Assembly: GCA_963828195.1 (NCBI GenBank)
Contig: CAWHDT010000005.1
Location: 192,001-256,000 of the forward strand
Direction: 5' to 3'
Length of the DNA: 64,000 nt
From: Candidatus Bathyarchaeota archaeon
GTDB lineage: Archaea > Thermoproteota > Bathyarchaeia > Bathyarchaeales > Bathycorpusculaceae
A program made the translations under genes and the position numbers. Within the stretch, counting starts at the first letter, position 1. Each line of letters begins with the position of its first letter. The notes under the pieces were generated by a model. That model ran no database searches and was not told where the DNA came from. It saw only the letters and a program-made list of their open reading frames with translations. Shown here one piece after another: positions 6,099-63,998 of the stretch.

Positions 6099-6426
6099 AG
6101 GCTTCCATATCCCCTCTGCGTAGCAATTAAGGAGTTATCTTCAAAGATATTTTGGCTCCCCATTTTTCAACCTTATTTATAGATTCAAGCGAGTTTGATT
6201 TAAATCTTCTTTCCTTTGAAATAAATGAAAAATGAGTTCAGACTTTGGTGTTTTATTTCCTTTTTTAACATGATCGACGCTAATGCGTCGCAAGAAAATG
6301 CATTTCGCTGTAAAGTTTTATGTTTCGGGTGTTCTCAGAAAAGTATTTCTTTGGGTTTTATCCCATAACTTGGTTCATATGGATGGTAAGATAGCCTTTT
6401 CCTAATGGGGTCTGTGAGCAGCAAAA

Positions 6427-12460: not shown

Positions 12461-12580
12461 CGCTTTGAATAGGTAAAGTTTTTCAGCCTACTTTAGTCTT
12501 GTCTCTCTTACAGTTTACCCTCGGTTTTCTGGATAAACCAATTGAGGCCACGTGAAAATTCTGCTGCGTGATTTTTTTTT

Positions 12581-12638
12581 AAAAGAAGAAGATGCTGGTG
12601 AAAACAATTTTTCTTCTTCTTCTTCCAAAACCATCCAA
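12581..12638. repeat. palindromic intergenic repeat (AAAAGAAGAAG...TTCTTCTTCTTC-CAAAAC.ATCCAA), copy 1
   Basis: Similar to 50704-50764 and 63951-63998. Confidence 0.75.
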
Positions 12639-12972: not shown

Positions 12973-14208
12973 ATGAAGCATAGGGTGACAAAGGCGCTGA
13001 GAGTTGGCTACATCCTTCTCGCCATCTTCTTTCTGCTCTTTGCTTTCGCATTGTTGCCTCAGCCAGTTCGAGCACAGACAGTGACGGCGACAGTGAACGG
13101 TCTGAGCGAGCCTTTTGAGGTGGCGGTAACACCCAACGGCGACTATGCGTACGTTACAAATGGCGGCGGTTCGGTGTCGGTGATTAGCACTGCGACGAAC
13201 AAGGTGACGGCGACTATAAACGGGGGAAACGGTCCTTTTGGCGTTGCTATAACACCCAACGGCGACTACGCATATGTTACGAATGGCGGCAGCGGTTCAG
13301 TCTGGGCAGTTAACACAGCTACCAATGAAGTGACGTCGAAAATAACTGTTGGAAACGGCCCTTTCGGTGTAGCTATATCGCCCAAGGGCGACTATGCGTA
13401 TGTAACTAATTTTGGCAGCGATTCAGTGTCGGTGATTAGCACGGCTTCGAATAAAGTGATTGGGACGGTAACCGTCGGAGGTGATCCTCAAGATGTGGCT
13501 GTTACCCCCAACGGCGGCTACGCATATGTTACAAACTTTGGCAGCGGCACGGTTTCGGTGATAAATACGACTACGAACAAGGTAGCGGCGACGGTAACTG
13601 TTGAAAGCGGTCCCTATGGTGTAGCTGTAACACCCGACGGCGACTACGCCTACGTTGCAAATTCTGGAAGCGGGACGGTCTCGGTGATAGACACGTCTAC
13701 GAACACAGTCACGGCGACGATAACGGGTCTAAGCGAGCCTTTTGGGGTAGCTGTAACGCCTAACGGTGCCTACGCCTACGTCACGAATGATGACAACAGC
13801 ACGGTTTCGGTCATAAGCACGGCTACAAATAAGGTGACCGCGGAAGTAACTGTTGGAAAGGACCCTTATGGTGTGGCGGTAACGCCCAATGGCACATTTG
13901 CCTACGTGGTGAATTTTGACAGCGCAACGGTCTCGGTGATAAATGTGGCTTCTGCTAATGTGACTCCAACGCCAACTTCAACTCCAACACCCGCGTTGAC
14001 GCCATCAGCGACTGCGACAGCATCTGTTAATGCGTTTGGAAACGGCGAGTCGAATTCAAACTTGACCGTCTATCAGCAGCATTCAGTGGCTATTGCAATA
14101 GCAGCTGCAGTAGCTATTGTGGTGGTTAGTACTATCTTAATTAAAGTGAAACCCAGACATCCAGGCAAAAGGTTTCAGGCTAACCAGCAAAGATTGAGTT
14201 GTAAATAA
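12973..14208 (+). CDS. YVTN/YncE-type beta-propeller surface protein
   Basis: About 7 repeats of P.GVAVTPNG.YAYVTN..S.TVSVI.T.TN.V; signal peptide, PT linker, C-terminal TM. Confidence 0.93.
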   Translation: MKHRVTKALRVGYILLAIFFLLFAFALLPQPVRAQTVTATVNGLSEPFEVAVTPNGDYAYVTNGGGSVSVISTATNKVTATINGGNGPFGVAITPNGDYAYVTNGGSGSVWAVNTATNEVTSKITVGNGPFGVAISPKGDYAYVTNFGSDSVSVISTASNKVIGTVTVGGDPQDVAVTPNGGYAYVTNFGSGTVSVINTTTNKVAATVTVESGPYGVAVTPDGDYAYVANSGSGTVSVIDTSTNTVTATITGLSEPFGVAVTPNGAYAYVTNDDNSTVSVISTATNKVTAEVTVGKDPYGVAVTPNGTFAYVVNFDSATVSVINVASANVTPTPTSTPTPALTPSATATASVNAFGNGESNSNLTVYQQHSVAIAIAAAVAIVVVSTILIKVKPRHPGKRFQANQQRLSCK

Positions 14209-17469: not shown

Positions 17470-17533
17470 GCGGACAACCGTGTCCGTTGGGATGTGGTCC
17501 TTAGGGACTGAACCGTAAGCAAATGAAGCATTT
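17470..17533 (+). promoter_or_regulatory. putative structured 5' leader of rpl15e
   Basis: Hairpins GCGGACA-ACCG-TGTCCGT (17470-17487), GGTCC-TTAG-GGACT (17496-17509) and AAATG-AAG-CATTT (17521-17533), between an AT-rich TATA-like box (~17433) and the AGGAG RBS. Confidence 0.45.
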
Positions 17534-17547
17534 AGGAGAAAAAACAT

Positions 17548-18162
17548 ATGGCATACAAATACATCGCGGAGGAATGGGCTCAACCCGAAAAATCCTTCGT
17601 TGAAGAACTCATGCGGGAAAGATTAGTGCAGTGGCGAAAACAGCCCTCAACACTTCGCATTGAGCATCCGACAAGGCTTGACCGCGCAAGAAAACTAGGC
17701 TACAAAGCCAAACAAGGCTTCGTCGTGGCAAGAACAAAAGTGCGCAGAGGCGGCCTACGAAAAAAACGCCCACGCTCAGGCAGACGACCCAAACGCATGG
17801 GAGTCGCCAAATTTAAACCAGCAAAAAGCATAAGGCTTATAGCTGAAGAGCGGACAGCAAAGCATTTCCCAAACCTGGAAGTTCTTAACAGTTACTGGGT
17901 AGGCGAAGACGGAAAGCACAAGTGGTTCGAAGTTATTCTGCTTGACCCAAAGAGCCCAGTGATAAAAACCGACAAAGACGTCAACTGGATAACGGAGAAG
18001 CAGCATACAAGCAGAGTCTTCCGAAGCTTAACAAGTGCAGGCAAAAACGTCAGAGGTCTAAACCACCGAGGAGCAGGAGCAGAAAAAGTAAGACCAAGCC
18101 ACCGCAGAGGAGCAAGAAAACGAGCACAGGCAACAACCAGAAAACCAAACCCAGGGCGATAA
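17548..18162 (+). CDS. rpl15e: 50S ribosomal protein L15e
   Basis: [36 protein letters not shown]. Confidence 0.98.
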
Positions 18163-29633: not shown

Positions 29634-30064
29634 TTTGAGAAAAAGTTTTCCGTCGATTAAATAATCGGCAGTTGCCCTGAAAAGGGTTTTAAGAAGGCGG
29701 ATTTAATTGGGCTCTTAGGTTTCGCGTTTTTTTCATTAACGCAATCTTCTTCTTTCCCTGTTTAGTATTGGTTTTTGTTCGGAAAATGACTCCGTGAGTA
29801 TTTTGATAGAATTTGTTTCCTTTATTTCTCAAGATAATTCAACCTTTGCTTACAGATGGGAAACTGATTATTTGAGTGTACCTATAGTTTTTCTTCTAAA
29901 TCTAACATAAAAATTACAAAGTTAAACAACATGTGCTTGTGGCTTAATCGCCTGAACTTTTGTGCAAATTTTTCTGAAACAAAATGGGTGCTCGGCTTGT
30001 TGCCCTAAGAAAACAAAAACAAAATTACAAATAGGTCAAAGTTTGACCACTGGGGTCTTTTCCG

Positions 30065-30277
30065 CTAAGGCGTAAAAATAGTCAAGTAATCATTTTTCAT
30101 TTCGAACAACAAATGCTTCTTCTTTAGAAATATTTCGATTCGACGACGATCAAAATCGCCTCTAACCTGCAATTGAGATTTATCAGGACTTCTCTGTTCA
30201 ATAAGCACTAAATTTGGGTTAACAAGTTGGTTAGCGCCCAATTCGCTTAAAATAACCGCAGCCTCTTTTCTATCCAC
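30065..30277 (-). CDS. small hypothetical protein
   Basis: 70-aa ORF with GGGG RBS-like sequence and globular composition. Confidence 0.6.
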   Translation of the reverse strand: MDRKEAAVILSELGANQLVNPNLVLIEQRSPDKSQLQVRGDFDRRRIEIFLKKKHLLFEMKNDYLTIFTP

Positions 30278-30581
30278 ATTCTTCCCCTACCGTACAAGAG
30301 AACTATGCGAGACTAATTAACCATTACCCCAAAAATTATGGATAACCAACCTAAGACACCGCGTAGATCCAAAAACTAAATGAGAATTAGGAATCCGCCG
30401 TTTGCCACCGCACATAAGCATCGAATTATGCGATTTATCTTAACTGTACATTGCTTCTAATGAGCCGCCTAAACGCGCAAAAAGATTTAGTTTTCAAGCT
30501 TGTTCAATGGTTGTTTCGTCGGGAAAGATTATACTTAAATAGTATATTGAAACTGAAAAGTGGATTAGGGCTTTATGATGT

Positions 30582-30658
30582 GCCGTCGTGGCTCAGCCCG
30601 GTAGAGCGGCTGGCTGTTAACCAGTCGGTCAAAGGTCCGAATCCTTTCGACGGCGCCA
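30582..30658 (+). tRNA. tRNA-Asn (GTT) with encoded CCA
   Basis: Acceptor GCCGTCG/CGACGGC, D arm GCTC..GAGC, anticodon arm CTGG-CTGTTAA-CCAG, T arm AAAGG-TCCGAAT-CCTTT, ends GCCA. Confidence 0.93.
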
Positions 30659-30764
30659 CTCCCGCTTCCACAAACTACCGTTTTTATGAAAAGTTCCCCT
30701 TCAATGATCTTTTTGTTTATGTCACAACCATCTTAAAACTGCTATTGTATATAGAAATTCATAT

Positions 30765-30782
30765 ATATAGAATTCTCTATAT
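30765..30782. repeat. 18-bp inverted repeat, left copy (ATATAGAATTCTCTATAT)
   Basis: Exact reverse complement of 31967-31984; the pair brackets the ATPase gene. Confidence 0.8.
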
Positions 30783-30801
30783 TTGAGGTCGGCGCAAAAC
30801 A

Positions 30802-31956
30802 ATGGTGGTCGTAGGCAAACCTCAAAAAGAAGTTATCGATCGGGAAGAAGAGATAGAAAAACTTGTTAAAAGCCTGTCAGATCCCTCTAAACAAGTTAAT
30901 TATGCGCTAATTGGTCCTCGACGCATCGGGAAGACAACGATACTTCTGAAAGTCAAAGAGCAGCTTGAAAATAACAAAATAATTGTCGCTTACGTGGATC
31001 TCTCAATTTACAAGTTTTCTCCTTATGATTTTGCGCAAAACATAATGTCTCAGGTCACTCGGGCTTATGCCAAAGATCTGGGCAAGACAGAAAAAGCTTC
31101 AACCATCATAGCTAATCTCTTAAAAACTTTGACGAAACTAAAGAAACTCCGTTTAACGTTAGAGCCTTCCATAGATGAAACAGGACAATTCTCCATCAAA
31201 ATAAGACCCGAAATAGAAGAAACCCAGGATTACAAGAACATTTTCCTCTTAGCTTTTGATTACTTCAATGAAGTTTCAAAAAAATGTGGCAAGCGAATAG
31301 TGATAATGATTGATGAGTTTCCCAGCATAATCGAATTTAAACGTTATTCTACTTTAGAAGCGATTACGGAGATTTTTAGAAGCGTTCTTGAAAACAGGGA
31401 AAACGTGCAATATGTCGTCAGCGGCTCTAGAGTTCATTATATGAGGGACATTCTTGGGAAGGGAGAAAGCCCATTATTTGGGCACTTTGTCATTGTAGAA
31501 GTTGGATCATTGCCTGAAGAATATGCAGTTCAATTATACATGCAAAGTGCTAAATCGACCAGAAAAGAGGCGGAAGAGGCATGGAAAATACTAGGGGGTC
31601 ACCCATATTACCTCATAATGTTGGCTGAAAACCGCAAACCCGATGAATCCGTAGAAGAAACATACGAGAGAATTCTCACAAGTTCCTCCGGCGCACTAAA
31701 CTTGTATGTTAACTACATTTTGAAAGATGATTTAGGCTCCTCAACAAAAGAAGCACGCCTCATGCGAATCCTACAAGCAATCTCACGGGGAAACAACACT
31801 TCAGCCCAAATCGCCAAACAAGTAAACCTGAAACTTACTAGTTTACCATTCTATCTTCAAGAGCTAGAAAAATACGACTTGATCGCGAGAAAAGAAGGAA
31901 AATACCAAATTAAAGATAAGATCGTCAATGATTATTTTACGAAGCTGCAAGAATAG
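30802..31956 (+). CDS. archaeal AAA+/STAND-like ATPase (COG1672-like) with C-terminal wHTH
   Basis: IDREEE, GPRRIGKT, IMIDEF, SGS, SPLFG, GGHPYY, C-terminal HTH; no nuclease tail. Confidence 0.88.
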   Translation: MVVVGKPQKEVIDREEEIEKLVKSLSDPSKQVNYALIGPRRIGKTTILLKVKEQLENNKIIVAYVDLSIYKFSPYDFAQNIMSQVTRAYAKDLGKTEKASTIIANLLKTLTKLKKLRLTLEPSIDETGQFSIKIRPEIEETQDYKNIFLLAFDYFNEVSKKCGKRIVIMIDEFPSIIEFKRYSTLEAITEIFRSVLENRENVQYVVSGSRVHYMRDILGKGESPLFGHFVIVEVGSLPEEYAVQLYMQSAKSTRKEAEEAWKILGGHPYYLIMLAENRKPDESVEETYERILTSSSGALNLYVNYILKDDLGSSTKEARLMRILQAISRGNNTSAQIAKQVNLKLTSLPFYLQELEKYDLIARKEGKYQIKDKIVNDYFTKLQE

Positions 31957-31966
31957 ATTTTTCTAT

Positions 31967-31984
31967 ATATAGAGAATTCTATAT
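31967..31984. repeat. 18-bp inverted repeat, right copy (ATATAGAGAATTCTATAT)
   Basis: Exact reverse complement of 30765-30782. Confidence 0.8.
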
Positions 31985-32004
31985 GTCTAAAAAAGGCCAC
32001 CGTT

Positions 32005-32062
32005 GGTAGAGCAGCTGGCTGTTAACCAGTCGGTCAAGGTCCGAATCTTTTCGACGGCGCCA
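32005..32062 (+). repeat. truncated degenerate copy of tRNA-Asn 3' portion (att-like direct repeat)
   Basis: Matches 30600-30658 with 2 substitutions and 1 deletion; lacks the 5' acceptor strand. Confidence 0.92.
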
Positions 32063-32267
32063 TATTTACCTTCATTTTTAAAAGTTAAATGAAAAGTTGC
32101 CTTCAAGCTTTGAAAAACCTTTTTTACAAGTGTTTAATTTTCATTTTGAGCAAGGGGCACGTCATCATTCATGCTCTCAACAGATGACGGTTTGGAAAGT
32201 GATGGCTCAATCTCTTTTTGCAATGGTGGAATACTATTAAGTAAAACTGTATAGTATTGATTAATCC

Positions 32268-32879
32268 ATGGGTAATTTGAATAAGAATCCGCAAAAAAGA
32301 GAAATAATGAATACAGCGGTCAAGCAGTCAAAGCAATCAACACTTGATAATATCGCTTATCAATTCAACATTTCAAAGCCAACTATGACGGGTAAGCCGA
32401 CAAAAGCAATAATGATTAACGACATCATTAGCCAATTCAAAGAAGAAGAGCTTTTTCTAAATGTCGATTTTACTCTGGTCCCTTCAAAGGTTTCTTTTTC
32501 TAAAGTCAGCATAGATTTGTTTTTTCAAGAGCACCAGCTCATTTCTAATACGCTTAGCATACCTCAAAGTACGCTATTAAACGACAGATTCGATTATCCC
32601 ATGGTCTTAGATATGAGAGGAATTGATGCAGGAAGTTACCTGATAGAGGTCGAAATGTATGAGTTATGGTCTCCTGATGAGAAGCTCTTCTTCACGTCCA
32701 AGTCGATTGTTATAGATTATGTCCCGCAAACTAGGGAATCAAGACTTGTAAAAATACCGACTGTTAAGAGCGTTGCGGGTTCAACCTTAACAGTTGTTTC
32801 ATCCAGCGAAAAAGAGATTTACCGCGATTTACAGCAGGACCTAAAGCAACAAGAAACAAGCAAAAGAGACAAATGGTAA
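32268..32879 (+). CDS. hypothetical protein (beta-sandwich-like core)
   Basis: 203-aa ORF; AGSYLIEVEM is Ig-like; no family recognised. Confidence 0.65.
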   Translation: MGNLNKNPQKREIMNTAVKQSKQSTLDNIAYQFNISKPTMTGKPTKAIMINDIISQFKEEELFLNVDFTLVPSKVSFSKVSIDLFFQEHQLISNTLSIPQSTLLNDRFDYPMVLDMRGIDAGSYLIEVEMYELWSPDEKLFFTSKSIVIDYVPQTRESRLVKIPTVKSVAGSTLTVVSSSEKEIYRDLQQDLKQQETSKRDKW

Positions 32880-32966
32880 CCTAAAAAGATCAGATGTCAG
32901 AATTAAAAAACATATGAAAAGCCTAAAATATCCGCCAACTAAAAAAAGGTGAATTAGCGAAAACTT

Positions 32967-33278
32967 ATGTTTGAACCCCATCAAGGAAACGTGAAATTAG
33001 ATTGTGAATTTGATAAAGTATGGGATTATTTGAAAGCGAAGGGGGAGCTTTATTTGCAGACTGAGGTAGAAGGCAAGCCATTTATCGCAAAAGCAAGGGT
33101 GGCAACAAGGGGAAAACATTCAGGGGAACAAGTAATAGTTTTTCTCCATGAAAAGAATGGGAAGCGAACTGAATCTGCAAGAGGTTATGAATGCTGCTGG
33201 GGGCATTACTACAACTGCTACGGAACCAGAATCGGCATGTACTTTAAAGCATTGGTCCACTCGACACGATTTTCATAG
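32967..33278 (+). CDS. hypothetical protein with Cys/His-rich C-terminus
   Basis: AGGTGA RBS; YECCWGHYYNC. Confidence 0.7.
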   Translation: MFEPHQGNVKLDCEFDKVWDYLKAKGELYLQTEVEGKPFIAKARVATRGKHSGEQVIVFLHEKNGKRTESARGYECCWGHYYNCYGTRIGMYFKALVHSTRFS

Positions 33279-33642
33279 AACAGTTTTTTCATTTCACTTT
33301 TCCAAACGATAATAGCTTTGAACAAAAAAGCTATAAGTTAACAAACAAAATTTTTTGCTTTTTTATTATTGTGACTCAAATCGACATTTCGTAAATTGGA
33401 AATAGCTATCGTTGAGTTAATGGGCGAAAATTAGTGTTAAACGGATTTAGCCTTACGCTAACAGGGATAAGGGAAAAAGAAGAGAGAGGGGACCTTATCT
33501 TCTATTAGCAGCCGAACCCGCTCAAACAACCGCTGGCTCTTAGCTTTCTTCTTGATTATCCCTTATCGTTCAAAGAGAATATAAAATAATGTTGTCGCAC
33601 ATTGAAGCAACAATCAAAAGTTATTGATTGATCAGTCTGATT

Positions 33643-34017
33643 TTATTTTTGTTTAAGTTTTTCGTCGAGGATTCCAATTAGTGTTTCTGGTTTGACTGGT
33701 TTAAGTAGAAATAAGTCGGCTCCTCTATTTACCTCGTCGAGCGTATCGGTTGACATAGGCGTACCTGTCAATACTATCTTCAGCATGCCGGGGGCTACTT
33801 TACTCATCTGAGGCAACAAATCGGTTCCCAATGTTTCCCCTAAACCGACATCAATCAAAGCTGCATCAAACTTTTTAGTGGACAGTTTTTCTGAAGCCTC
33901 TTTGCCCGTTTGAGCTGTAATTACATCGTAGCCTTCTCTGCTCAACAGACGAGCCATAGTTCTCAGAATGGAAACGTTATCATCAATTACAAGTATGCTA
34001 CGCTTATTCTCAGCCAT
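33643..34017 (-). CDS. single-domain response regulator (receiver)
   Basis: ILVIDD, LID phospho-acceptor, LTG, KPV. Confidence 0.92.
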   Translation of the reverse strand: MAENKRSILVIDDNVSILRTMARLLSREGYDVITAQTGKEASEKLSTKKFDAALIDVGLGETLGTDLLPQMSKVAPGMLKIVLTGTPMSTDTLDEVNRGADLFLLKPVKPETLIGILDEKLKQK

Positions 34018-34210
34018 GAATTAAACAAGTCCTTCTGGGATTATTTCTCGCGGAAAAATATCTAAATCAACTGAATAATCGCCGAATGTTTAAACATTTG
34101 TTGCAGCAACTTGACACATACATTTCCTCAAACAACTAAAGCTAATTTTTTTAAGCATAATCTAATAAGAGCAAAGACATCCGACGTACAATAATAAGAT
34201 AGAAAGTCAT

Positions 34211-37200
34211 TTGAGCATCTTAAACAGTAAAGGTAACAGGCAGATGGGTTATGTGGCAAACACAGACGAAATGAACGATAAGCTTCAGGTTGATTTTCCT
34301 GTTGTCGGAATCGGTGCTTCTGCCGGCGGGTTAGAAGCATTCAGGAGTTTGCTTGAATGTTTATCTGTTAACACGGGCTTATCTTTTGTTGTCATCCAGC
34401 ATCTGGCCGCTGGACAAGAAAGCATGCTTACAGATATTCTATCAAGATTTACTAAAATTCCAGTCCAAATCATCAAAGATGGGACATCAATTGAACCAAA
34501 CCATGTTTACGTGATTCCGCCAGGAACCACCATGACAGTGGAAAAAAAAGTTCTTAAACTCAACCCAAAAGGCAAGTCTCTAAAACCCATAGACACCTTT
34601 TTTATTTCTCTCGCCGAAGACTCAAAAGCTCAAAGCATCGGCGTCGTGCTTTCAGGCACAGGTTCTGATGGAACCGAAGGACTAAAAGCCATCAAAGCCC
34701 AGGGCGGAATCACGTTCGCGCAGACTCCAAGCTCAGCCCAGTACCCAGACATGCCGCAAAACGCTATTGCAGCCGACGCCACAGACTTCGTTCTAACCCC
34801 AGACAACATCGCGCTGGAACTCCAGAAAATCTCCAAGAACCCACATCTTGCCCACACCACGATTGAAGCAAAAGAAGAGAAAGCTGCAGAAAAAGCCGTT
34901 CCAAAGAGGGAAACTGGTTTAAACGCAATATTTGCCATGCTAAAATCAAATTTCAACGTTGATTTTTCACACTATAAAGAAACGGTTGTAAACCGGCGTG
35001 TCTCCCGCCGAATGGTAATTAACCACTTAGAGAAAATGGCGAAGTACGTTGAGTATTTGCGGACGCATCCAAATGAGCTCGAAGCGTTGTTTAACGATAT
35101 GCTAATTGGTGTGACAAGTTTCTTCAGAGAAACCGAAACCTTTGTTGCCCTGAAAGAAACAGCTTTTCCGGATTTAGTTAAAAAACACAATTCTAAAGAG
35201 CCTATCCGCTTTTGGATTCCAGGCTGCTCAACGGGAGAAGAAGCCTACTCATTTGCCATAGCAATTCAAGAATACCTTGAAGAAAACTCAATTAATGATC
35301 TTCAAATCCAAATTTTCGGCACCGACGTCAACGAAAAAAACATTGAAAAAGCACGACAAGGAATCTACCAAAAAACCATAGAGGCTGACGTTTCTGAAAA
35401 CCGACTAAAACGTTACTTCGTTAGCCTCAACAGCGGCGGCAACTATCAAATCTCCAAAAAAATCCGAGACAAATGCGTGTTTGCAAAGCAAGACATAACC
35501 GCTGACCCACCCTTCTCCAACATGGATCTAGTCAGCTGCCGCAACATGCTAATTTACTTTGACGAATATCTTCATGAAAGAGTACTGCCCACGCTGCACT
35601 ATGCCTTGAAGGTAGGTGGCTTTCTTGTTCTTGGGCAATCTGAAAGCATAGGCAAATTTACAAGCCTATTTGAACCCGTAAAAAAGACGACGATTTATTT
35701 AAAAAAGAGGACCCAGCCGAGCATCACTTTTGGATTACAAACTTCGCCCTACCAGCATAAGCTTAAAGAAATCAAAGCAGGCGAAAAGAAAGATACTCTT
35801 TCGATTTTAAAAGATGAAGTTGACCGTTTGCTGGTCACTGAGTATGTTCCCGCCGCTTTGCTGGTTAATGCCAATTCAGATGTTCTCGTTTTCCGAGGGA
35901 ACGTTGCTCCATACATTTTGCCTGAATCTGGGCTCGCAAGTTTGAATCTTGCTAAGATAATGCGTAAAGAGTTAAAGTCTGAAGTCCAAACCATGATTTA
36001 TAGAGCAAAAAAAGAAAATAAACCAGTAAGTGAAAATGGTGTTCGGTTCGAATTTGGTGGGGAACAAAAAACCATAAATGTTAAGGTCATTCCACTGCAA
36101 TTTGAACGGTTCGAAGAGCCGTTTTTCCTTGTTTTGTTTGATGATGTTAGTTCCGCTGCTGCGTTACTGCGTCAAACCTTAGAGTTAACATCTACTCCTC
36201 AGGGTCAGGATAGTGCCAGGGATCAACAAATTAAGGAGCTCAGAGAGGAATTGGACTCAGCTAAGCTGTCTTTGCAGAGAATTATTGAAACCGAAGAAGC
36301 GACCAACGAAGAGTTGAGAACCACCATGGAGGAAGCGCAGTCCAGCAATGAGGAGTTGCAGAGCACAAACGAAGAGTTGGAGACAGCGAAAGAGGAGCTT
36401 CAGTCAAGCAACGAAGAATTAAAAACGCTAAATGACGAAGTGAGAAATCGAAATCAAACGCTTGCACAGTTGAACGATGATCTAGTTAACTTGAACAGAA
36501 ATGTGGGTCCAGCTGTCGTTATCATCGATAGAAACCGAAAAATCAGGTTGTTTTCTCCTTCAGCAACGAAAATTTTGAATCTTTCTCCTTCAACAATTGG
36601 ATTGCCGATAACGACTATTAGACTAAGCGTAATAGTTGAGGACTTAGAAAGTACACTTGCGGAAGTTATGTCTAAACTAAGCGTTATTGCCCGAGAAGTA
36701 AGGGATGAGCAAGGCCATTATTACGAAATGCAAATTAGACCTTACATAACACTGGAGGACAAGATAGATGGCGCTGTTTTGTCCTTTATCGATATTGATG
36801 ACAGAAAAAAACTTGAAAAGACTCAGCGACTTGCCGCCATAGGCGAAACAGCAGGCATGGTTGGACATGACATCCGTAACCCCCTGCAGGCTATAACCAG
36901 CGACGTTTACTTGCTTAAAGATTATTTTTCGGCGACACCTGAAATGAAGACCAAGAAGGATGCAGCAGAAAGTTTAGACGGCATAGAGAAAAACGTTGAC
37001 TACATTAATAAAATTGTAGCTGACCTGCAAGATTATGCGAGAACGATCAGCCCCACTTTTCAAGAAACAGACTTAGAAGCTTTGTGTAAAGAAATGCTGC
37101 AGGGAAAATACATACCGGGTAACGTTGAATTTTCATGCAACATCGAGGGTTCAGCCAAAAAAATCTTGGTTGACGGCAGTTTATTGAAGCGCATTCTCGG

Positions 37201-37516
37201 CAATCTGGTGTCTAATGCAGTTCAAGCTATGCCTAATGGAGGAAAACTAGCAGTGAGTGCACATAAGGAAGCGGGCGACGTAGTTATCGCAGTTTCGGAT
37301 ACAGGCGTAGGCATCCCTAACAAAATTAAGCCAAAGGTTTTCACTCCGTTCTTCACAACCAAATCTAAGGGTCAAGGCTTAGGATTAGCCGTGGTCAAAC
37401 GCGTGACTGAAGCATTAAACGGCACAGTAGCTTTTGAGAGTAAAGAAGGAAACGGAACAACTTTCATTGTGCGCCTGCCCCCTCAAAAGCTAAACGGCAA
37501 ATGGACATTCAAGTAA
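34211..37516 (+). CDS. CheB methylesterase-CheR methyltransferase-coiled coil-PAS-histidine kinase fusion
   Basis: GASAGG/QH/GSDG (CheB), GCSTGEEAYS and SCRNMLIY (CheR), EELQS.NEE coil, HDIRNPL, N/G1/F/G2 boxes; true start may be ATG 34243. Confidence 0.93.
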   Translation: MSILNSKGNRQMGYVANTDEMNDKLQVDFPVVGIGASAGGLEAFRSLLECLSVNTGLSFVVIQHLAAGQESMLTDILSRFTKIPVQIIKDGTSIEPNHVYVIPPGTTMTVEKKVLKLNPKGKSLKPIDTFFISLAEDSKAQSIGVVLSGTGSDGTEGLKAIKAQGGITFAQTPSSAQYPDMPQNAIAADATDFVLTPDNIALELQKISKNPHLAHTTIEAKEEKAAEKAVPKRETGLNAIFAMLKSNFNVDFSHYKETVVNRRVSRRMVINHLEKMAKYVEYLRTHPNELEALFNDMLIGVTSFFRETETFVALKETAFPDLVKKHNSKEPIRFWIPGCSTGEEAYSFAIAIQEYLEENSINDLQIQIFGTDVNEKNIEKARQGIYQKTIEADVSENRLKRYFVSLNSGGNYQISKKIRDKCVFAKQDITADPPFSNMDLVSCRNMLIYFDEYLHERVLPTLHYALKVGGFLVLGQSESIGKFTSLFEPVKKTTIYLKKRTQPSITFGLQTSPYQHKLKEIKAGEKKDTLSILKDEVDRLLVTEYVPAALLVNANSDVLVFRGNVAPYILPESGLASLNLAKIMRKELKSEVQTMIYRAKKENKPVSENGVRFEFGGEQKTINVKVIPLQFERFEEPFFLVLFDDVSSAAALLRQTLELTSTPQGQDSARDQQIKELREELDSAKLSLQRIIETEEATNEELRTTMEEAQSSNEELQSTNEELETAKEELQSSNEELKTLNDEVRNRNQTLAQLNDDLVNLNRNVGPAVVIIDRNRKIRLFSPSATKILNLSPSTIGLPITTIRLSVIVEDLESTLAEVMSKLSVIAREVRDEQGHYYEMQIRPYITLEDKIDGAVLSFIDIDDRKKLEKTQRLAAIGETAGMVGHDIRNPLQAITSDVYLLKDYFSATPEMKTKKDAAESLDGIEKNVDYINKIVADLQDYARTISPTFQETDLEALCKEMLQGKYIPGNVEFSCNIEGSAKKILVDGSLLKRILGNLVSNAVQAMPNGGKLAVSAHKEAGDVVIAVSDTGVGIPNKIKPKVFTPFFTTKSKGQGLGLAVVKRVTEALNGTVAFESKEGNGTTFIVRLPPQKLNGKWTFK

Positions 37517-50538: not shown

Positions 50539-50622
50539 AAAATTTCGCCACTGTATAGGGAGACACGCGGTTTATAAAAATGATTCTGAACAGGCTGTGG
50601 CTGGTTTTGTATCCATTTTTTA

Positions 50623-50764
50623 TTTTTAAAAGAACAATAACACCCGGAAAACAGATGTTGTTCTTCTTGCAGGAGAGTTAAACTCACCAAAAAAAGAATT
50701 ATCAAAAGAAGAAGAAGCCCAGAAAAACTTTTTTTCTTCTTCTTCTTCCTCCAAAACAATCCAA
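50623..50764. repeat. palindromic intergenic repeat, copy 2 (two hairpin units)
   Basis: TTTTAAAAGAACAAT-N17-TGTTGTTCTTCTTG plus AAAAGAAGAAGAAGCCCA..TTTTCTTCTTCTTCTTC..CCAAAACAATCCAA. Confidence 0.8.
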
Positions 50765-56137: not shown

Positions 56138-56212
56138 GGGCCGGTAGATCAGCTCGGTATGATCGCCGCGTTCGCAACGCGGAAGCCGCGGGTTCAAATC
56201 CCGCCCGGTCCA
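56138..56212 (+). tRNA. tRNA-Ala (CGC)
   Basis: Acceptor GGGCCGG/CCGGTCC with G3:U70, D arm GATC..GATC, anticodon arm CCGCG-TTCGCAA-CGCGG, T arm GCGGG-TTCAAAT-CCCGC, discriminator A. Confidence 0.95.
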
Positions 56213-56230
56213 TAATTAAACTCAATTTGT

Positions 56231-56665
56231 CTATTCAAGCTCTTCCAAAAAAAGCAAGGTAACGCCAAATGATTTTTTTCCCATTTCGTCTGCCAACTCT
56301 TGCTCTTGACGAGCAAAAATGGCGTTACCGGCAATTTTATGAGCCAACGCCAAAATGAAGCAGTCGGGAAGCGAAATGGCTCTCTGACATTTTATTTTGG
56401 CCGCTTCGTCGATCAAATGGAAGGTGTCTTCAACCTTAAAATATCCTGAAGCAAGAAGTTTGCTTACTCTTTCTTTTGATTGTTGCCATCCAAGTTTTCT
56501 ACATAGGACATATCGCAGCTCTGTTATGGCTAGCTCTGTTGTGTAGGCTTCAACCATGTCGGTTTCGAGAGCTTTTTTTAGCTTTTGTCCCAAGTCATCG
56601 CAGTATATTAGCTCAATTAGTGCGCTCGTGTCTATTGCTAATTTTCCTCTCAAGTCTTTCATCAT
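56231..56665 (-). CDS. vapC: PIN-domain toxin (VapC-like)
   Basis: AIDTSAL, E.RYVL, ISLPDC..LALA. Confidence 0.88.
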   Translation of the reverse strand: MMKDLRGKLAIDTSALIELIYCDDLGQKLKKALETDMVEAYTTELAITELRYVLCRKLGWQQSKERVSKLLASGYFKVEDTFHLIDEAAKIKCQRAISLPDCFILALAHKIAGNAIFARQEQELADEMGKKSFGVTLLFLEELE

Positions 56666-56882
56666 CGTTCTTCCGTTCTGTTTCTAATTCTTCAAGCGCT
56701 TCTTTAACGCCTATGATTGGGCTGCATGCTTCTTCCAGCAACCGAGGGTTTTTATCTTGCTGGTCCACCAAGAAACGAAGGGCTTCGTTTAGGTCAACTC
56801 GTCGCCCCCTCTTGATTTGAAGTTCGGATGCGACCTTCAAGAGTTTTTCTTTGACGTCCTCAGTTACCGATATCGTAGTCAT
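56613..56882 (-). CDS. VapB-type antitoxin (RHH-like)
   Basis: MTTISV.EDVKEKL N-terminal strand-helix; overlaps and precedes the PIN gene. Confidence 0.8.
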   Translation of the reverse strand: MTTISVTEDVKEKLLKVASELQIKRGRRVDLNEALRFLVDQQDKNPRLLEEACSPIIGVKEALEELETERKNDDERLERKISNRHERTN

Positions 56883-56968
56883 AGAGATCATAATAACTAT
56901 AGCAACTATAGCAGATATACCTATCTGGCTTTATCTGCGTGAATTTACGCATAAGCCGTTTAGAAATT

Positions 56969-57019
56969 ATCGCCGCGATCGCAACACGGAAGCCGCCGGT
57001 TCAAATCCCGCCCAGTCCA
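56969..57019 (+). repeat. degenerate copy 1 of tRNA-Ala 3' 51 nt (att-like)
   Basis: Matches 56162-56212 with 4 substitutions. Confidence 0.92.
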
Positions 57020-57031
57020 CTCATCAAATCT

Positions 57032-57385
57032 TCAACTTTTTCTTATTTTGCGCACCCTTATTTTTTTCTCTGAGACAATCATAACGTTTCCAAGAATAGC
57101 ATCACTATGAGAAGCCAGGATGAAAGAAACAATTTTCACCTTGTTTTCGATGGTCTCATCTTTTAGTCTCAACAGGATCACTCCCGGTAGCCTGTTAAAA
57201 CCTTCAAGCCTACCGAAGTATTTATCGTTGGTCACAATTACGCGGTTTTCCTCAACTGCTTTTAGCACAATTTCCTCGTCCGATGCGCCCTTCATGTATT
57301 CAATTACAGAAACTGAGTCAAATCCCATTTGAGCTAGTTTTTTAGAAACCCAAATGCCAGTACACTCATCAACTAAAAACTTCAA
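57032..57385 (-). CDS. DUF5615 PIN-like toxin (VapC45-like)
   Basis: MKFLVDEC, G.SDEEI, RVIVT.DK.FG, GVILLR. Confidence 0.88.
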   Translation of the reverse strand: MKFLVDECTGIWVSKKLAQMGFDSVSVIEYMKGASDEEIVLKAVEENRVIVTNDKYFGRLEGFNRLPGVILLRLKDETIENKVKIVSFILASHSDAILGNVMIVSEKKIRVRKIRKS

Positions 57386-57395
57386 AGAACCAAGC

Positions 57396-57641
57396 TCATG
57401 TAATGATTACTGGGTAAACTTCTTCTTCACCGGCGACTTTGGACGCGTAAAGCAGGACAGCGGCAACATCATCTTTAGATAGATGCGGATAATCCTTCAG
57501 GATTTCTTTTGCGGTTAAACCCTGAGCGAGCAGCTTTAACACTTGTTCTACAGTGATCCTTGTGCCTTTTACAATAGGTTTTCCACCCATAACTTTTGGG
57601 TCCACGACGATAAGTTCCAAGAGTTCTTCTTCGGTTTTCAT
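57396..57641 (-). CDS. DUF433 antitoxin-like protein
   Basis: DP.VMGGKP.VKGTRITVE, EIL.DYP.L...DV.A.L.Y. Confidence 0.92.
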   Translation of the reverse strand: MKTEEELLELIVVDPKVMGGKPIVKGTRITVEQVLKLLAQGLTAKEILKDYPHLSKDDVAAVLLYASKVAGEEEVYPVIIT

Positions 57642-57716
57642 TACCTGAACCTTCAAGTACGATAATAGGCAGTCCATCTAATAAATGACTTAATAGGAGT
57701 TAGCCAAAACGTTAAC

Positions 57717-57767
57717 ATCGCCGCGTTCGTAACGCCGAAGCCCCGTGGTTCAAATCCCCGCGATCCA
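57717..57767 (+). repeat. degenerate copy 2 of tRNA-Ala 3' segment (att-like)
   Basis: ATCGCCGCGTTCGTAACGCCGAAGCCCCGTGGTTCAAATCCCCGCGATCCA; same 5' and 3' boundaries as copy 1 but more diverged. Confidence 0.85.
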
Positions 57768-63889: not shown

Positions 63890-63998
63890 TTTTTTAAAAG
63901 AACAATGGCACTTGGGAAGCAACTGTTGTTCTTCTTGGCAATTTTTATTCAAAAGAAGAAGAAGCCCACTGAAAATGTTTTTTTTCTTCTTCTTCTTC
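63890..63998. repeat. palindromic intergenic repeat, copy 3 (two hairpin units; runs to the window edge)
   Basis: TTTTAAAAGAACAAT-N17-TGTTGTTCTTCTTG plus AAAAGAAGAAGAAGCCCA..TTTTCTTCTTCTTCTTC, colinear with 50623-50748. Confidence 0.8.

Follow-up and report, generated by a model that had tools for sequence, protein, structure and literature searches.

Elements integrated in archaeal genomes usually leave an intact tRNA gene at one end and a repeat of its 3′ part at the other, and crenarchaeal att sites span 29 to 69 bp (PMC6563490, PMC4158269). Integrated elements often lack an integrase through loss, and they integrate in tandem (PMC8371274, PMC6563490). In Sulfolobus islandicus, 13 insertions at tRNA genes have left remnants, most of them non-functional and some common to strains (PMC3718332). 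Among streptococcal ICE/IME families, an element whose integration genes were lost while attL and attR stayed is termed a CIME, and such elements form tandem arrays at the 3′ end of the target gene, tRNA genes included (PMC5704250).

Here we describe a locus in a 64-kb stretch of DNA from a Bathyarchaeia genome (the window, meaning the whole stretch analyzed), in which a single ATPase gene lies between a tRNA-Asn gene and a partial copy of that gene. Like decayed archaeal elements, it has an intact tRNA at one end and the 3′ part repeated at the other, its 58-nt repeat falls within the crenarchaeal range of 29 to 69 bp (PMC6563490), no working integrase is present, remnants occur at the same tRNA in related genomes, and toxin-antitoxin genes lie nearby. 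Unlike those elements, it retains not even an integrase fragment, its sole gene is fully intact and under strong purifying selection, repeat homology resumes past the tRNA end, and one relative is circularly permuted. As in CIMEs, attL- and attR-like sites are kept while integration and transfer genes are absent; CIMEs, however, are bacterial and are mobilized by accretion with a conjugative element, and no partner element or conjugation genes were seen here.

Integron cassette arrays and pdif modules consist of short, promoter-bearing, single-function cassettes between recombination-site-like repeats. The window likewise has toxin-antitoxin and defense-like cassettes lined up between repeats, but its repeats are 3′ parts of tRNAs and not attC- or dif-like, neither an IntI nor an Xer gene was seen in the window, and palindromes frame the ATPase only. 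The encoded protein is most similar in structure to 2qen (Pyrococcus abyssi PABY2304) and 2fna (Sulfolobus solfataricus SSO1545), with which it has in common the PF01637 match and the domain order, at only 17 to 20% identity. To our knowledge neither protein has an assigned function, and we found no description of flanking operators for ATPases of this type. STAND NTPases (Apaf-1, plant NLRs, MalT) and Orc1/Cdc6 resemble the protein, at a Foldseek probability of 1.0 and TM scores of 0.40 to 0.48, in their NTPase-helical-winged-helix core, and it has a GxP-type motif (GGHPYY); unlike STAND NTPases, it lacks a sensor repeat domain, and no close fused forms were found, and unlike Orc1/Cdc6 it scores far below the Orc1 family cut-off.

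RESULTS

One ATPase gene lies between tRNA-Asn and a decayed partial copy of it

The features of the locus, with the method that identified each, are as follows.

29634..34200, no strand: low-GC tract enclosing the whole structure (36 to 39% GC versus 44% for the window)
30582..30658, plus strand: intact tRNA-Asn(GTT), CCA encoded (ARAGORN; Rfam; cloverleaf fold)
30600-30658, plus strand: left direct-repeat copy (attL-like), the last 59 nt of tRNA-Asn (direct-repeat search)
30659..30685, plus strand: 27-nt flank directly 3′ of tRNA-Asn, with TTTTT at its end (blastn versus L004)
30686..30704, plus strand: short box ATGAAAAGTT..TTCAA, which recurs at equal offset after the second tRNA copy (repeat search, alignment)
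30751..30780, no strand: upstream double palindrome with TATATATA centre, 21 nt before the ATG (inverted repeats; alignment)
30802..31956, plus strand: P-loop ATPase of PF01637 type with C-terminal winged helix-turn-helix (wHTH), 384 aa (Pfam, alignment, PDB profile, AF2/Foldseek)
31953..31982, no strand: downstream double palindrome, whose first ATAG contains the ATPase stop codon TAG
32005..32062, plus strand: decayed copy of tRNA-Asn positions 19 to 77 (attR-like; repeat search, pairwise alignment, blastn)
32089..32106, plus strand: second copy of the ATGAAAAGTT..TTCAA box, 3′ of the right tRNA copy (repeat search, alignment)

The tRNA-Asn gene scores 66.4 bits in Rfam against a gathering score of 29 and folds into a perfect cloverleaf (−32.8 kcal/mol, z −2.19). 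An earlier note on this DNA had reported that its 3′ part recurs downstream with two substitutions and one deletion, and both repeat search and alignment confirmed this. Positions 30600-30632 match 32005-32037 (97%, spacing 1,405) and positions 30632-30658 match 32036-32062 (96%, spacing 1,404); pairwise alignment of the right copy with the 3′ part of the gene shows two substitutions, G>A at tRNA position 26 and C>T in the T-stem, and one deleted A. Of 58 aligned positions 55 are identical, with the one deleted base in addition, and the longest exact stretch, 24 nt, spans the anticodon arm. The right copy lacks the first 18 nt of the tRNA, carries two T-stem-breaking changes, and is not recognized as a tRNA by ARAGORN or Rfam. 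It matches positions 7253-7310 of a related locus, L004, at 95% (blastn), and its A26 is the base found in the downstream tRNA-Asn of L004, whereas the intact window gene has G26, consistent with displacement of the original 3′ end by an imported one.

Similarity extends beyond the tRNA itself. The 27-nt flank agrees at 24 of 27 positions with the sequence that follows L004's left tRNA-Asn remnant (window 30636-30685 against L004 5829-5879, 88% by blastn), and it is better conserved than the synonymous sites of the adjacent ATPase gene (pS 0.49). Within the window, homology between the two tRNA copies resumes 27 nt past the tRNA 3′ end as a 13-nt box, with 12 of 13 positions identical between 30686-30698 and 32089-32101 at a spacing of 1,403.

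The inter-repeat segment (30659-32004) is 1,346 bp long, and 30802-31956 is the only ORF of at least 50 aa between the repeats that is free of tRNA overlap. That the ATPase gene stands alone there, with no integrase, had also been noted earlier, and it agrees with the ORF list and with a Pfam scan of 63 window ORFs, which returned no integrase or transposase family anywhere in the 64 kb. Of the 72 ORFs that reach 110 aa, 59 were scanned, together with four shorter ones; the 13 omitted ORFs all overlap longer ones. The earlier note had also raised an assembly artefact as an objection. The repeat is not one, because the two copies differ, as true paralogous copies do, and because like structures, with tRNA-Asn pieces flanking the orthologue on both sides, occur in two independent assemblies, L001 and L004; we regard an artefact or chance match as practically negligible.

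Base composition does not clearly mark the repeats as element ends, because the low-GC tract overshoots them by about 1 kb on the left and 2 kb on the right. The cassette has a GC content of 37.8%, compared with 44% for the window, with the tract beyond both repeats also low, and the GC3 of the ATPase gene is 0.39 versus 0.47 for a neighboring radical-SAM gene. The tract also holds orphan ORFs of 70, 203, and 103 aa, for which Pfam, NCBIfam, PADLOC, and PHROGs returned nothing and the best atlas score was 0.85, a lead only.

A second structure in the window, at tRNA-Ala, serves for comparison.

56138..57767, plus strand: tRNA-Ala(CGC) with two 3′ copies (ARAGORN, repeat search)
56138-56212, plus strand: full tRNA-Ala gene
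56966-57019: tRNA-Ala 3′ copy 1, 91% identical
57714-57767: tRNA-Ala 3′ copy 2, 74% identical
56231-56891, minus strand: cassette 1, PIN and a small upstream ORF, integrase-less
57032-57677, minus strand: cassette 2, DUF5615 and DUF433, integrase-less

The likeness that had been drawn between the two structures holds: the tRNA-Ala array likewise consists of a full tRNA gene followed by 3′ copies, and its cassettes are two toxin-antitoxin pairs. Repeat identity drops with distance from the tRNA, as successive integrations predict. A search for published accounts of archaeal tRNA-bounded, integrase-less toxin-antitoxin cassettes found only general descriptions of remnants, a faint hint that the arrangement may be undescribed.

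Conserved double palindromes frame the gene

Two palindromes frame the ATPase gene more tightly than the tRNA repeats do, which is a new observation on this locus. Each has the form ATAG-N6-CTAT-AT-ATAG-N6-CTAT, 30 bp in which two 14-bp dyads are joined by AT, and the TATATATA centre of the upstream one lies about 30 to 40 nt before the ATG. An exact 18-bp inverted match connects the two (30765-30782 and 31967-31984; 0.09 expected by chance), and in locus L002 the two palindromes have an exact 16-bp direct match. Alignment found both the upstream and the downstream palindrome in 7/7 Bathyarchaeia loci (the window and L001 to L006), and the unit that they frame measures 1,223 to 1,235 bp in all seven. 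Upstream palindromes are 80 to 93% identical in pairs among the window and L001 to L005 and 63 to 73% identical in pairs with L006, while synonymous sites over the same pairs are saturated (pS of about 0.8 in most).

A regular expression for the double motif matched seven places in about 165 kb (the window and eight loci), all of them at ATPase genes. Six of the seven were downstream palindromes and the seventh was the upstream one of L006. In the six remaining upstream palindromes A replaces the C that ends the first dyad, and only alignment revealed them. A looser single-dyad expression matched nine places, again only at ATPase genes. The upstream palindrome is likely a promoter TATA box plus operator. 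A scan for sigma-70-type promoters and terminators, which is unsuited to archaea, gave counts at shuffle level.

Judged as a transposon or MITE (terminal inverted repeats, target-site duplication, and transposase), the unit has the inverted palindromes, but neither a target-site duplication nor a transposase was found: the longest word shared between the 15-nt flanks was at most 4 nt in 7/7 loci, and no transposase family matched in the scanned ORFs of the window or its relatives. Archaeal dif consists of two 11-nt inverted repeats around a 6-nt spacer (PMC8371274). A dif/XerA reading was set aside: the motif here has two 14-bp dyads 16 bp apart, and the window has no Xer gene.

The framed gene occurs in different neighborhoods in other Bathyarchaeia

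The framed gene of about 1.23 kb is common to six other Bathyarchaeia species (one genome scanned per species), at 59 to 89% amino acid identity. Its neighborhood differs in all seven related loci: no flanking gene within 6 kb is common to any two of the window and L001 to L007, and in 21 pairwise comparisons of 2-kb flanks (the window and L001 to L006) only tRNA-Asn pieces match beyond the motif edges. This limit of homology could be due to constraint alone, because neutral DNA would be unalignable at a dS of at least 0.6. In 5/8 loci a tRNA gene or fragment lies within 1.2 kb of the ATPase gene. Rfam in E-value mode missed all tRNA fragments, and these were located by fuzzy matching and blastn-short.

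The orthologues in L001 and L004 are 89% identical to the window protein, and tRNA-Asn pieces flank both on both sides. L001 has three tRNA-Asn remnants with a DUF433 cassette between two of them, and about 45 nt adjoining the tRNA piece are also repeated in this array (a 68-nt family, 76%). In L004, for which dS to the window is 0.81, the order is tRNA 3′ end, 3′ flank, ATPase, 5′ flank, tRNA, and in the window it is 5′ flank, tRNA, 3′ flank, ATPase, so that the two are circular permutations. The downstream tRNA-Asn copy of L004 is full length and includes about 12 nt of the tRNA's 5′ flank (10/12 nt as in the window); it scores 47.5 bits and folds weakly (−19.3 kcal/mol, z 0.14).

Other loci involve other tRNAs or none. 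In L005, 832 nt separate the gene from the 3′ end of a tRNA-Cys, and a weak integrase fragment (23.5 bits; cut-off, 27.1) lies in this interval; a search beyond the gene for a second, partial tRNA-Cys found none. The ATPase gene of L006 and one other ORF lie between direct repeats of about 185 nt (88% identical), which appear to include the 5′-terminal ~25 nt of an intron-bearing tRNA(CAU). This apparent tRNA, at about 8280-8428, was identified by reading, from its acceptor ends and CAU loop, and was called neither by ARAGORN with introns allowed nor by Rfam. For L002, L003, and L007, the searches detected no tRNA in the vicinity of the gene.

The earlier proposal of a single-gene mobile cassette is partly supported. 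The different neighborhoods of the seven related loci and the tRNA proximity of five of eight favor it; the unit held in common, however, is the 1.23-kb framed gene and not the 1.4-kb tRNA-bounded unit, and the gene evolves like a housekeeping gene. We infer, as the best explanation, that the framed gene has been repeatedly relocated in Bathyarchaeia, mostly to tRNA-proximal, toxin-antitoxin-rich variable spots.

The protein is a STAND-like ATPase with a winged helix-turn-helix

In Pfam, the 384-aa protein exceeds the cut-offs of both PF01637 (ATPase_2; 70.3 bits against 33.2) and HTH_45 (28.8 bits against 25.5), and its domains run from a P-loop NTPase through a helical domain to the wHTH. 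Its motifs include Walker A (GPRRIGKTT), Walker B (..IDEF), and GGHPYY, and residues G38, K44, T45, and D171 are invariant across 36 aligned sequences. JGI names the homologues “AAA+ ATPase superfamily predicted ATPase,” and we take the family to be COG1672. Searches for published work on COG1672, PF01637, or Arch_ATPase found nothing on function or flanking motifs.

A PDB profile search matched 2qen at 8.8e-9. With an AF2 model of pLDDT 69 as the query, Foldseek ranked 2qen (E 2e-10) and 2fna (E 4e-9) best, at TM scores of about 0.51 to 0.55, followed by Cdc6/Orc1, including 2qby, a Cdc6/Orc1 structure bound to origin DNA, and by NLR/Apaf-1. The NLR and Apaf-1 chains reached a probability of 1.0 at TM scores of 0.31 to 0.48, and Cdc6/Orc1 and RuvB were equally good. 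The label “STAND-like ATPase-wHTH” given earlier suits this ranking. Residue 384, immediately behind the wHTH, is the last of the protein, and there is no C-terminal sensor or repeat domain (TPR, WD40, or LRR). Among proteins of 673 to 2,000 residues there was no close fused form, only five RelA/SpoT fusions at 23 to 29% identity, which is weak evidence. The score against the Orc1 NCBIfam model was 15.7, far under its cut-off of 354.

The best PADLOC match was PDC-S27 (1.5e-18), a partial one covering residues 128-365 only. PDC-S27 is a candidate defense family that is not known to have experimental support. The score against the NCBIfam anti-phage equivalog DS41_1 was 19.5, versus a cut-off of 370. 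A possible role in defense is suggested solely by the partial PDC-S27 match.

Where measurable, dN/dS for the ATPase is 0.05 to 0.09 (0.05 to 0.07 against L001 and L004), which indicates strong purifying selection. Its best relatives are 92% and 89% identical, compared with 85% for CysRS as a control. Together these values argue for long residence and mostly vertical descent and against a recently hopping cassette. The subfamily was confined to Bathyarchaeia and Nitrososphaeria in homologue searches.

A viral or plasmid origin of the ATPase was considered and rejected: tblastn against 50,697 phage records gave no match, plasmid matches (50 records, mostly haloarchaeal megaplasmids) were all below 30% identity, and PHROGs matched at the P-loop level only. 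Many homologues lie on contigs of 1.3 to 1.5 kb, which might suggest that assemblies break at a repeated unit. This idea was dropped because the difference from the control is not significant: among the matches listed, the contig exceeded the gene by less than 450 nt for 13/88 complete ATPase genes and for 8 of about 100 complete CysRS genes.

DISCUSSION

The locus has the appearance of cargo left behind by an old element that had integrated at a tRNA gene, and it is not a proven active cassette. The best explanation, to which we give about an even chance, is that it is an integrase-less remnant of integration at tRNA-Asn, CIME-like and akin to the archaeal “gene capture” at tRNA genes reportedly described by She et al. 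in 2001 and 2004, and that the palindromes are putative operators to which the protein's own wHTH would bind. A circular DNA that brought in a copy of the 3′ part of the tRNA (at least positions 19 to 77 and some 3′ flank) would have crossed over with the chromosomal tRNA-Asn gene. The left end would then have kept an intact tRNA, and the 3′ part that was displaced would have come to lie at the right end; one or more elements may have recombined with tRNA-Asn in this way. The recombinase gene and other cargo would later have been lost. We infer the integrase-mediated origin and the loss of the integrase, as well as DNA binding by the wHTH and any defense role; the recombinase in particular has to be wholly postulated, because the 63 scanned ORFs contain no integrase, integrase fragment, or transposase. 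What survived would be a self-contained module, the ATPase-wHTH gene between two 30-bp double palindromes, maintained by strong purifying selection. The winged helix is predicted to bind the dyads as dimers. Overlap of the upstream palindrome with the likely TATA box would allow autoregulation, and the downstream palindrome over the stop codon could supply a further operator site, form a roadblock, or anchor a loop. As its output, the STAND/Orc-like NTPase would oligomerize in an ATP-driven manner, toward defense or regulation.

Several observations favor a remnant. An intact tRNA with a 58-nt copy of its 3′ part 1.4 kb downstream is the usual layout of an archaeal integrated element, and the cassette has low GC and GC3. 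Pieces of tRNA-Asn lie at L001 and L004, a tRNA-Cys and a weak integrase fragment at L005, and repeats at L006; the loci have no flanking genes in common, and the window has its tRNA-Ala array. The operator reading is favored by a motif that is dyad-symmetric, is found by regular expression only at ATPase genes, and is conserved despite saturated pS. Against a remnant stand the 13-nt box past the tRNA end and the full-length L004 copy with its 5′ flank, neither of which a plain att duplication predicts; both better fit a tRNA-bearing circle or a segmental duplication. The ATPase also diverges like a core gene, L005 has no partial tRNA-Cys copy, and L002, L003, and L007 have no tRNA near the gene. 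Furthermore, dS reaches 0.81 between the window and L004, yet only 5% separates the right copy from the gene; either the gene had resided here long before the event, or the copy still functioned as a tRNA in the recent past.

That near-identity of the copies, with its 24-nt exact core and a divergence far below that of neutral sites between species, would also be expected if the 1,405-bp unit were an active mini-cassette that still excises and re-integrates via the tRNA-Asn repeats, served by an integrase from elsewhere in the genome, by a co-resident element, or by homologous recombination, with the tRNA-Ala cassettes behaving likewise. Such a cassette would account for the circular permutation between the window and L004, as expected from passage through a circle with tRNA-Asn sequence, for the compactness of all three window cassettes, with intact ORFs and no pseudogene debris, and for the repetition of sequence adjoining the tRNA piece in the L001 array. 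We consider it unlikely, given that no recombinase was found in 64 kb, that the right copy has lost the first 18 nt and has two T-stem changes, that the tRNA-Ala copies (91% and 74%) point to decay and not maintenance, and that ATPase divergence tracks a housekeeping gene. The full-length L004 copy and the box suggest instead, with a still smaller probability, that no mobile element was involved and that an ancestral segmental duplication placed two tRNA-Asn genes around a resident ATPase, followed by lineage-specific decay of the right gene here, the left in L004, and both in L001. A26 in the right copies of both the window and L004 means that the two-copy state probably predates their split, and the fragments remain 88 to 95% similar despite a dS of about 0.8, as if they had been working genes until recently. 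A tandem duplication including the gene should, however, leave a second ATPase or its debris, and none was seen; the three genomes have unrelated outer flanks; the L006 gene lies between other repeats at another tRNA, and elsewhere the gene lies beside toxin-antitoxin cassettes and an integrase fragment. In addition, the full-length L004 copy is a poor tRNA by score and fold, and the tRNA-Ala array cannot be explained in this way.

The sharp edges of homology raise another prospect, that the palindrome-framed gene is itself mobile and the tRNA vicinity only a preferred landing zone. The palindromes would then be recombination sites (12-bp inverted arms around a TATATATA spacer, similar to lox/FRT/dif or to pdif of Acinetobacter plasmids) or origin-like repeats of a 1.2- to 1.4-kb mini-circle bound by the Orc1/Cdc6-like ATPase-wHTH. 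Homology begins and ends at the outer motif edges between all loci, unit length is near-constant in 7/7, upstream and downstream copies match within a locus (18-bp inverted in the window, 16-bp direct in L002), all seven contexts differ, and the fold resembles origin-bound Cdc6/Orc1 (2qby). This reading nevertheless seems improbable to us: the roughly 165 kb contained no solitary motif copy, target-site duplications and a nearby recombinase are both missing, sharp limits may mark selective constraint only, where neutral flanks cannot be aligned, the upstream copy sits exactly at the expected promoter/operator position, and the Orc1 score is far below its cut-off. We know of no role of the PF01637 ATPase family in replication or recombination. 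An equally long shot is a bolder version, in which the 1.23-kb unit would be a novel kind of selfish module, autonomous and independent of any integrase. Its protein would recognize its own dyads, and it would form a small circle able to carry tRNA sequence and re-enter beside tRNA genes via the palindromes or tRNA homology; the tRNA-Ala toxin-antitoxin cassettes would belong to the same tRNA-fragment traffic, a loose archaeal counterpart of integron and pdif arrays. Passage through a tRNA-carrying circle would explain the circular permutation of the window relative to L004.

If the locus is a remnant of integration at tRNA-Asn, as we prefer, it would be a clean case in uncultured Bathyarchaeia of tRNA genes collecting small useful or addictive genes from decayed elements. 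The large PF01637/COG1672 family, whose function is not known, would also gain a testable handle in the conserved 30-bp double palindromes as predicted wHTH targets. If the bolder version were true, a lone gene bounded by binding sites of its own would be mobile without a classical recombinase, tRNA fragments would serve as cassette boundaries, and this would constitute a new route of gene traffic in archaea.

A truncated copy of tRNA-Asn bounds a single ATPase gene

Two tRNA genes were found in the window, tRNA-Asn(GTT) and tRNA-Ala(CGC) (Rfam 66.4 and 63.3 bits, respectively). A second copy of the last 59 nt of tRNA-Asn (30600 to 30658) lies beyond the ATPase gene, the sole ORF of at least 50 aa between the copies that does not overlap a tRNA.

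Features of the tRNA-Asn locus
30582-30658, tRNA-Asn(GTT) gene
30751-30780, upstream copy of a 30-bp double palindrome
30802-31956 (+), ATPase gene, 384 aa
31953-31982, downstream copy of the double palindrome
32005-32062, partial tRNA-Asn copy

The copy differs from the gene by a G>A change at tRNA position 26, a deleted A, and a C>T change in the T-stem, at a spacing of 1405/1404 nt; the earlier note, which described this gene between tRNA-Asn and its 3' copy, had the coordinates and the two substitutions and one deletion correct. The match is far beyond chance. The first 18 nt of the tRNA are missing from the right copy, which was called by neither tRNA prediction nor Rfam. Both copies are followed at the same offset, 27 to 28 nt past the CCA end, by a 13-nt box (12/13 identical), and the 27 nt separating CCA end from box are unrelated in the two.

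The structure lies in a low-GC tract (29634 to about 34200; 36 to 39% versus 44%) that extends beyond it; the variable region exceeds the unit described in the earlier note. DNA of 36% GC flanks the tRNA-bounded unit on both sides (29634-30581 and 32063-33400). Orphan ORFs of 70, 203, and 103 aa in this tract had no family match in four libraries.

A Pfam scan covered 63 window ORFs (59 of the 72 of at least 110 aa and four shorter; the 13 skipped are all overlapped by longer ORFs). Most of the window is housekeeping (L15e, RNase P p30, four aminoacyl-tRNA synthetases, POR, and PEP carboxylase), and no integrase or transposase was detected among these 63. Downstream of the tRNA-Ala gene (56138-56212), its 3' 54 nt occur twice more (91%, then 74% identity), giving an array that spans 56138-57767, with weak similarity running on about 20 nt past the CCA end. 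These copies bound two integrase-less minus-strand cassettes, one encoding a PIN toxin with a small upstream ORF and the other DUF5615 (PIN-like) with DUF433.

Several other features of the window were recorded. Hairpin-like repeats of about 50 to 65 nt (AAAAGAAGAAGAAG ... CTTCTTCTTCTTC) occupy four or five intergenic sites, including 12559-12625, 50606-50748, and 63891-63995; they are possible terminators or a possible small repeat element. ORF 12973-14208 has matches to beta-propeller families (Lactonase, YNCE-like) and contains seven tandem 126-nt (42-aa) repeats (13081-13920). Immediately 5' of the L15e gene (17548-18162) is an Rfam eL15-Euryarchaeota ribosomal-protein leader (17471-17519; 43.5 bits), even though best matches assign the genome to Bathyarchaeia. 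A single 1,101-aa ORF (34211-37516) fuses CheB methylesterase, CheR methyltransferase, PAS, HisKA, and HATPase domains and is adjoined by a lone response-regulator gene (33643-34017, minus strand).

The ATPase has a STAND-like core without a sensor domain

The protein matches PF01637 (ATPase_2) at 70.3 bits (cutoff, 33.2) and carries a C-terminal winged helix (HTH_45, 28.8 bits; cutoff, 25.5). Walker A residues G38, K44, and T45, Walker B D171, an SGSR motif, and GGHPYY are invariant across 36 homologs. The subfamily profile matches 2qen, a Walker-type ATPase of Pyrococcus abyssi, at 8.8e-9, and an AlphaFold2 model (pLDDT 69) has 2qen and 2fna as its best structural matches, followed by Cdc6/Orc1, plant NLRs, and Apaf-1. 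The designation STAND-like ATPase with a winged helix-turn-helix (wHTH) is thus reasonable for the core, by profiles and modeled fold, but unlike STAND NTPases the protein has no sensor domain.

RelA/SpoT fusions (23 to 29% identity) were the sole fused relatives found among proteins of 673 to 2000 residues; P0241 to P0245 (~1,050 to 1,090 aa) combine RelA/SpoT (p)ppGpp synthetase/hydrolase domains with a PF01637 ATPase. NCBIfam gave no match above its cutoffs, and in PADLOC the ATPase partially matches candidate family PDC-S27 (1.5e-18). Given this candidate match and the toxin-antitoxin pairs in the neighborhoods, a defense role is plausible.

The ATPase gene does not outpace a core gene in divergence, and its neighbors change

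About 90 cluster representatives are related to the ATPase at 58 to 92% identity; almost all are 383 aa, and all are Bathyarchaeia wherever named. One scan of species-representative genomes yielded seven archaeal loci (L001 to L007) and a bacterial, irrelevant match (L008; 21% amino acid identity). Pfam was run on the 67 of 105 non-nested ORFs closest to the ATPase gene.

Archaeal loci with ATPase homologs: lineage, amino acid identity, and Pfam neighborhood
L001, Bathyarchaeia, 89%: antitoxin-like DUF433 ORF between two tRNA-Asn remnants; PF01637/DUF234 paralog
L002, Bathyarchaeia, 73%: ribosomal protein S10, Rad50/Mre11-like genes
L003, Bathyarchaeia, 75%: two PIN-MazE pairs
L004, Bathyarchaeia, 89%: EF-2; TumE toxin
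L005, Bathyarchaeia, 71%: integrase fragment, below threshold
L006, Bathyarchaeia, 59%: housekeeping oxidoreductases, TiaS
L007, Nitrosotenuis, 47%: homolog (6001-7161) within a histidine operon (hisG, hisD, hisC, ATPase, HAD, hisB, hisH), its stop codon overlapping the start of the next gene

Within 6 kb, no two of the eight loci (the window and L001 to L007) share any ORF beyond the ATPase gene and its shadow ORFs. Relaxed blastn of 2-kb flanks beyond the motif edges, run on 21 pairs drawn from the window and L001 to L006, matched nothing but tRNA-Asn pieces, which are shared among the window, L001, and L004. Solid evidence for relocation of the ATPase gene comes from the turnover of its flanking genes. 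A tRNA gene or fragment lies no more than 1.2 kb away at five of eight loci, including a tRNA-Cys in L005 whose 3' end faces the ATPase gene at 832 nt. With the three tRNA-Asn cases counted once, the proportion is 3/6, a probability of about 0.003 under assumed figures of about 46 tRNAs in about 2 Mb.

The gene itself is constrained (dN/dS, 0.05 to 0.085 in four measurable pairs). dS is 0.81 to 1.27 among the window, L001, and L004 and 0.63 between L002 and L003, and other pairs are saturated. As calibration, the best relatives of the window CysRS (416 aa) are 85, 85, 88 (a partial protein), and 83% identical; those of the ATPase reach 92 and 89%. This comparison indicates that the ATPase gene is not diverging faster than a core gene and has probably been inherited mostly vertically, though its position shifts.

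In L002, the interval between ribosomal protein S10 and a HAD hydrolase contains an exact 16-nt direct repeat (5610-5625 and 8121-8136) on either side of 2.5 kb with the ATPase gene and small orphan ORFs; this repeat may be a pair of att sites or a coincidence.

A conserved double palindrome frames the gene

The ATPase gene is bracketed by the double palindrome ATAG-N6-CTAT-AT-ATAG-N6-CTAT, with an exact 18-bp inversion between the two sites (30765-30782 and 31967-31984). Allowing up to three mismatches, the motif occurs in the window at these two places only (chance expectation, 0.09). The center of the upstream copy, TATATATA, is about 30 to 40 nt before the ATG, presumably the position of an archaeal TATA box, and the stop codon contains the start of the downstream copy.

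In all seven Bathyarchaeia loci, window included, alignments show the gene flanked upstream and downstream by the double palindrome, with a framed unit (motif, gene, motif) of 1,223 to 1,235 bp and no target-site duplication in any. Across the window and eight loci (~165 kb), a double-motif regular expression matched seven times, always at ATPase genes (downstream in the window and L001 to L005, upstream in L006); alignment recovered the six remaining upstream copies and the L006 downstream copy, each one or two bases off. A looser single-dyad expression gave nine matches, likewise all at ATPase genes. DNA similarity between the window and L001 to L005 is limited to the framed unit alone (from 30746/30751 to 31937-31984).

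Identity of the downstream motif between loci is 57 to 90%. The upstream motif is kept at 80 to 93% among the window and L001 to L005 and at 63 to 73% in pairs with L006, despite mostly saturated dS, which argues that the double palindrome is under selection. Considering the dyad symmetry, the exclusive tie to the ATPase gene, the site over the presumed TATA box, and the wHTH of the protein, the simplest reading is that the palindromes are predicted autoregulatory operators of the ATPase's own wHTH.

tRNA pieces recur in rearranged form at related loci

In L004, a 25-nt tRNA-Asn 3'-end remnant followed by a window-like 27-nt flank (24/27 identical) lies upstream of the ATPase gene (5827-5879), and downstream there is a full-length tRNA-Asn, preceded by some 12 nt of window-like 5' flank (7223-7310). 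This order indicates a circular permutation relative to the window: the contiguous 5' flank, tRNA, and 3' flank of the window are interrupted within the T-arm/acceptor region, and the ATPase gene lies between the two parts. The downstream tRNA has a score of 47.5 bits and a poor fold (-19.3 kcal/mol, z 0.14), compared with 66.4 bits and -32.8 kcal/mol for the window gene; like the right copy in the window, it has A26, where the intact window gene has G26. The TumE toxin ORF (5554-5859, minus strand) starts within the upstream remnant.

L001 holds three tRNA-Asn remnants of 17 to 28 nt (4598-4625, 5832-5850, and 7206-7222), and about 45 nt left of the first two is repeated too. The resulting 68-nt repeat (4557-4624 and 5781-5848; 76% identical), a 20-nt tRNA-Asn 3' remnant with ~45 nt of unrelated non-tRNA DNA to its left, bounds the DUF433 cassette; the partner toxin is decayed, with no ORF of at least 40 aa in its region. 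A T-arm remnant of a different tRNA lies at ~7297-7321.

In L006, the ATPase gene and a 216-aa orphan lie between ~185-nt direct repeats (5543-5724 and 8129-8311; 88% identical), each repeat comprising about 160 nt of upstream flank and apparently the first ~25 nt of a tRNA(CAU). The right repeat enters what looks like an initiator-type, intron-bearing tRNA(CAU) (~8280-8428, AGCGGGG...CCCCGCTACCA) beside TiaS, called by neither ARAGORN nor Rfam.

Origin of the tRNA-bounded structure

The repeat geometry is the classic one left when a tRNA gene recombines with an element that carries the 3' part of that tRNA. Repeat length falls within the archaeal att-site range in passages of PMC6563490 and PMC4158269, and passages of PMC8371274 and PMC3718332 describe integrase loss, tandem site reuse, and remnants common to related genomes. 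On these grounds, we read the tRNA-Asn locus as an integrase-less remnant in which the survivor would be a strongly selected, self-contained ATPase-wHTH module. The bacterial term CIME, as a passage of PMC5704250 has it, denotes retained attL and attR with integration genes lost; the tRNA-Asn locus likewise has att-like ends without integration genes.

Several features sit poorly with so plain a remnant: there is no trace of an integrase, homology picks up again past the end of the tRNA, in L004 the order is circularly permuted and the downstream copy is full length, and nonfunctional tRNA pieces are unexpectedly similar (88 to 95%) across genomes with near-saturated synonymous sites. They keep three alternatives in play. 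That the cassette is still mobilized in trans is unlikely; plain tRNA duplication is slightly more doubtful again, and a module moving by its own palindromes or as a mini-circle is the least probable. The sharp homology limits at the motif edges do not discriminate between these readings, since neutral DNA would be unalignable at such divergence. The interpretation in the earlier note, a single-gene mobile cassette that is possibly defense related, is supported in part, and its observation is confirmed.

Remnants without an integrase at tRNA genes are a known kind of structure, and this locus belongs with them. Its unusual features are the conserved double-palindrome frame around a PF01637 ATPase gene and the repeated relocation of this framed gene near tRNA genes in Bathyarchaeia, as it appears from the loci compared.
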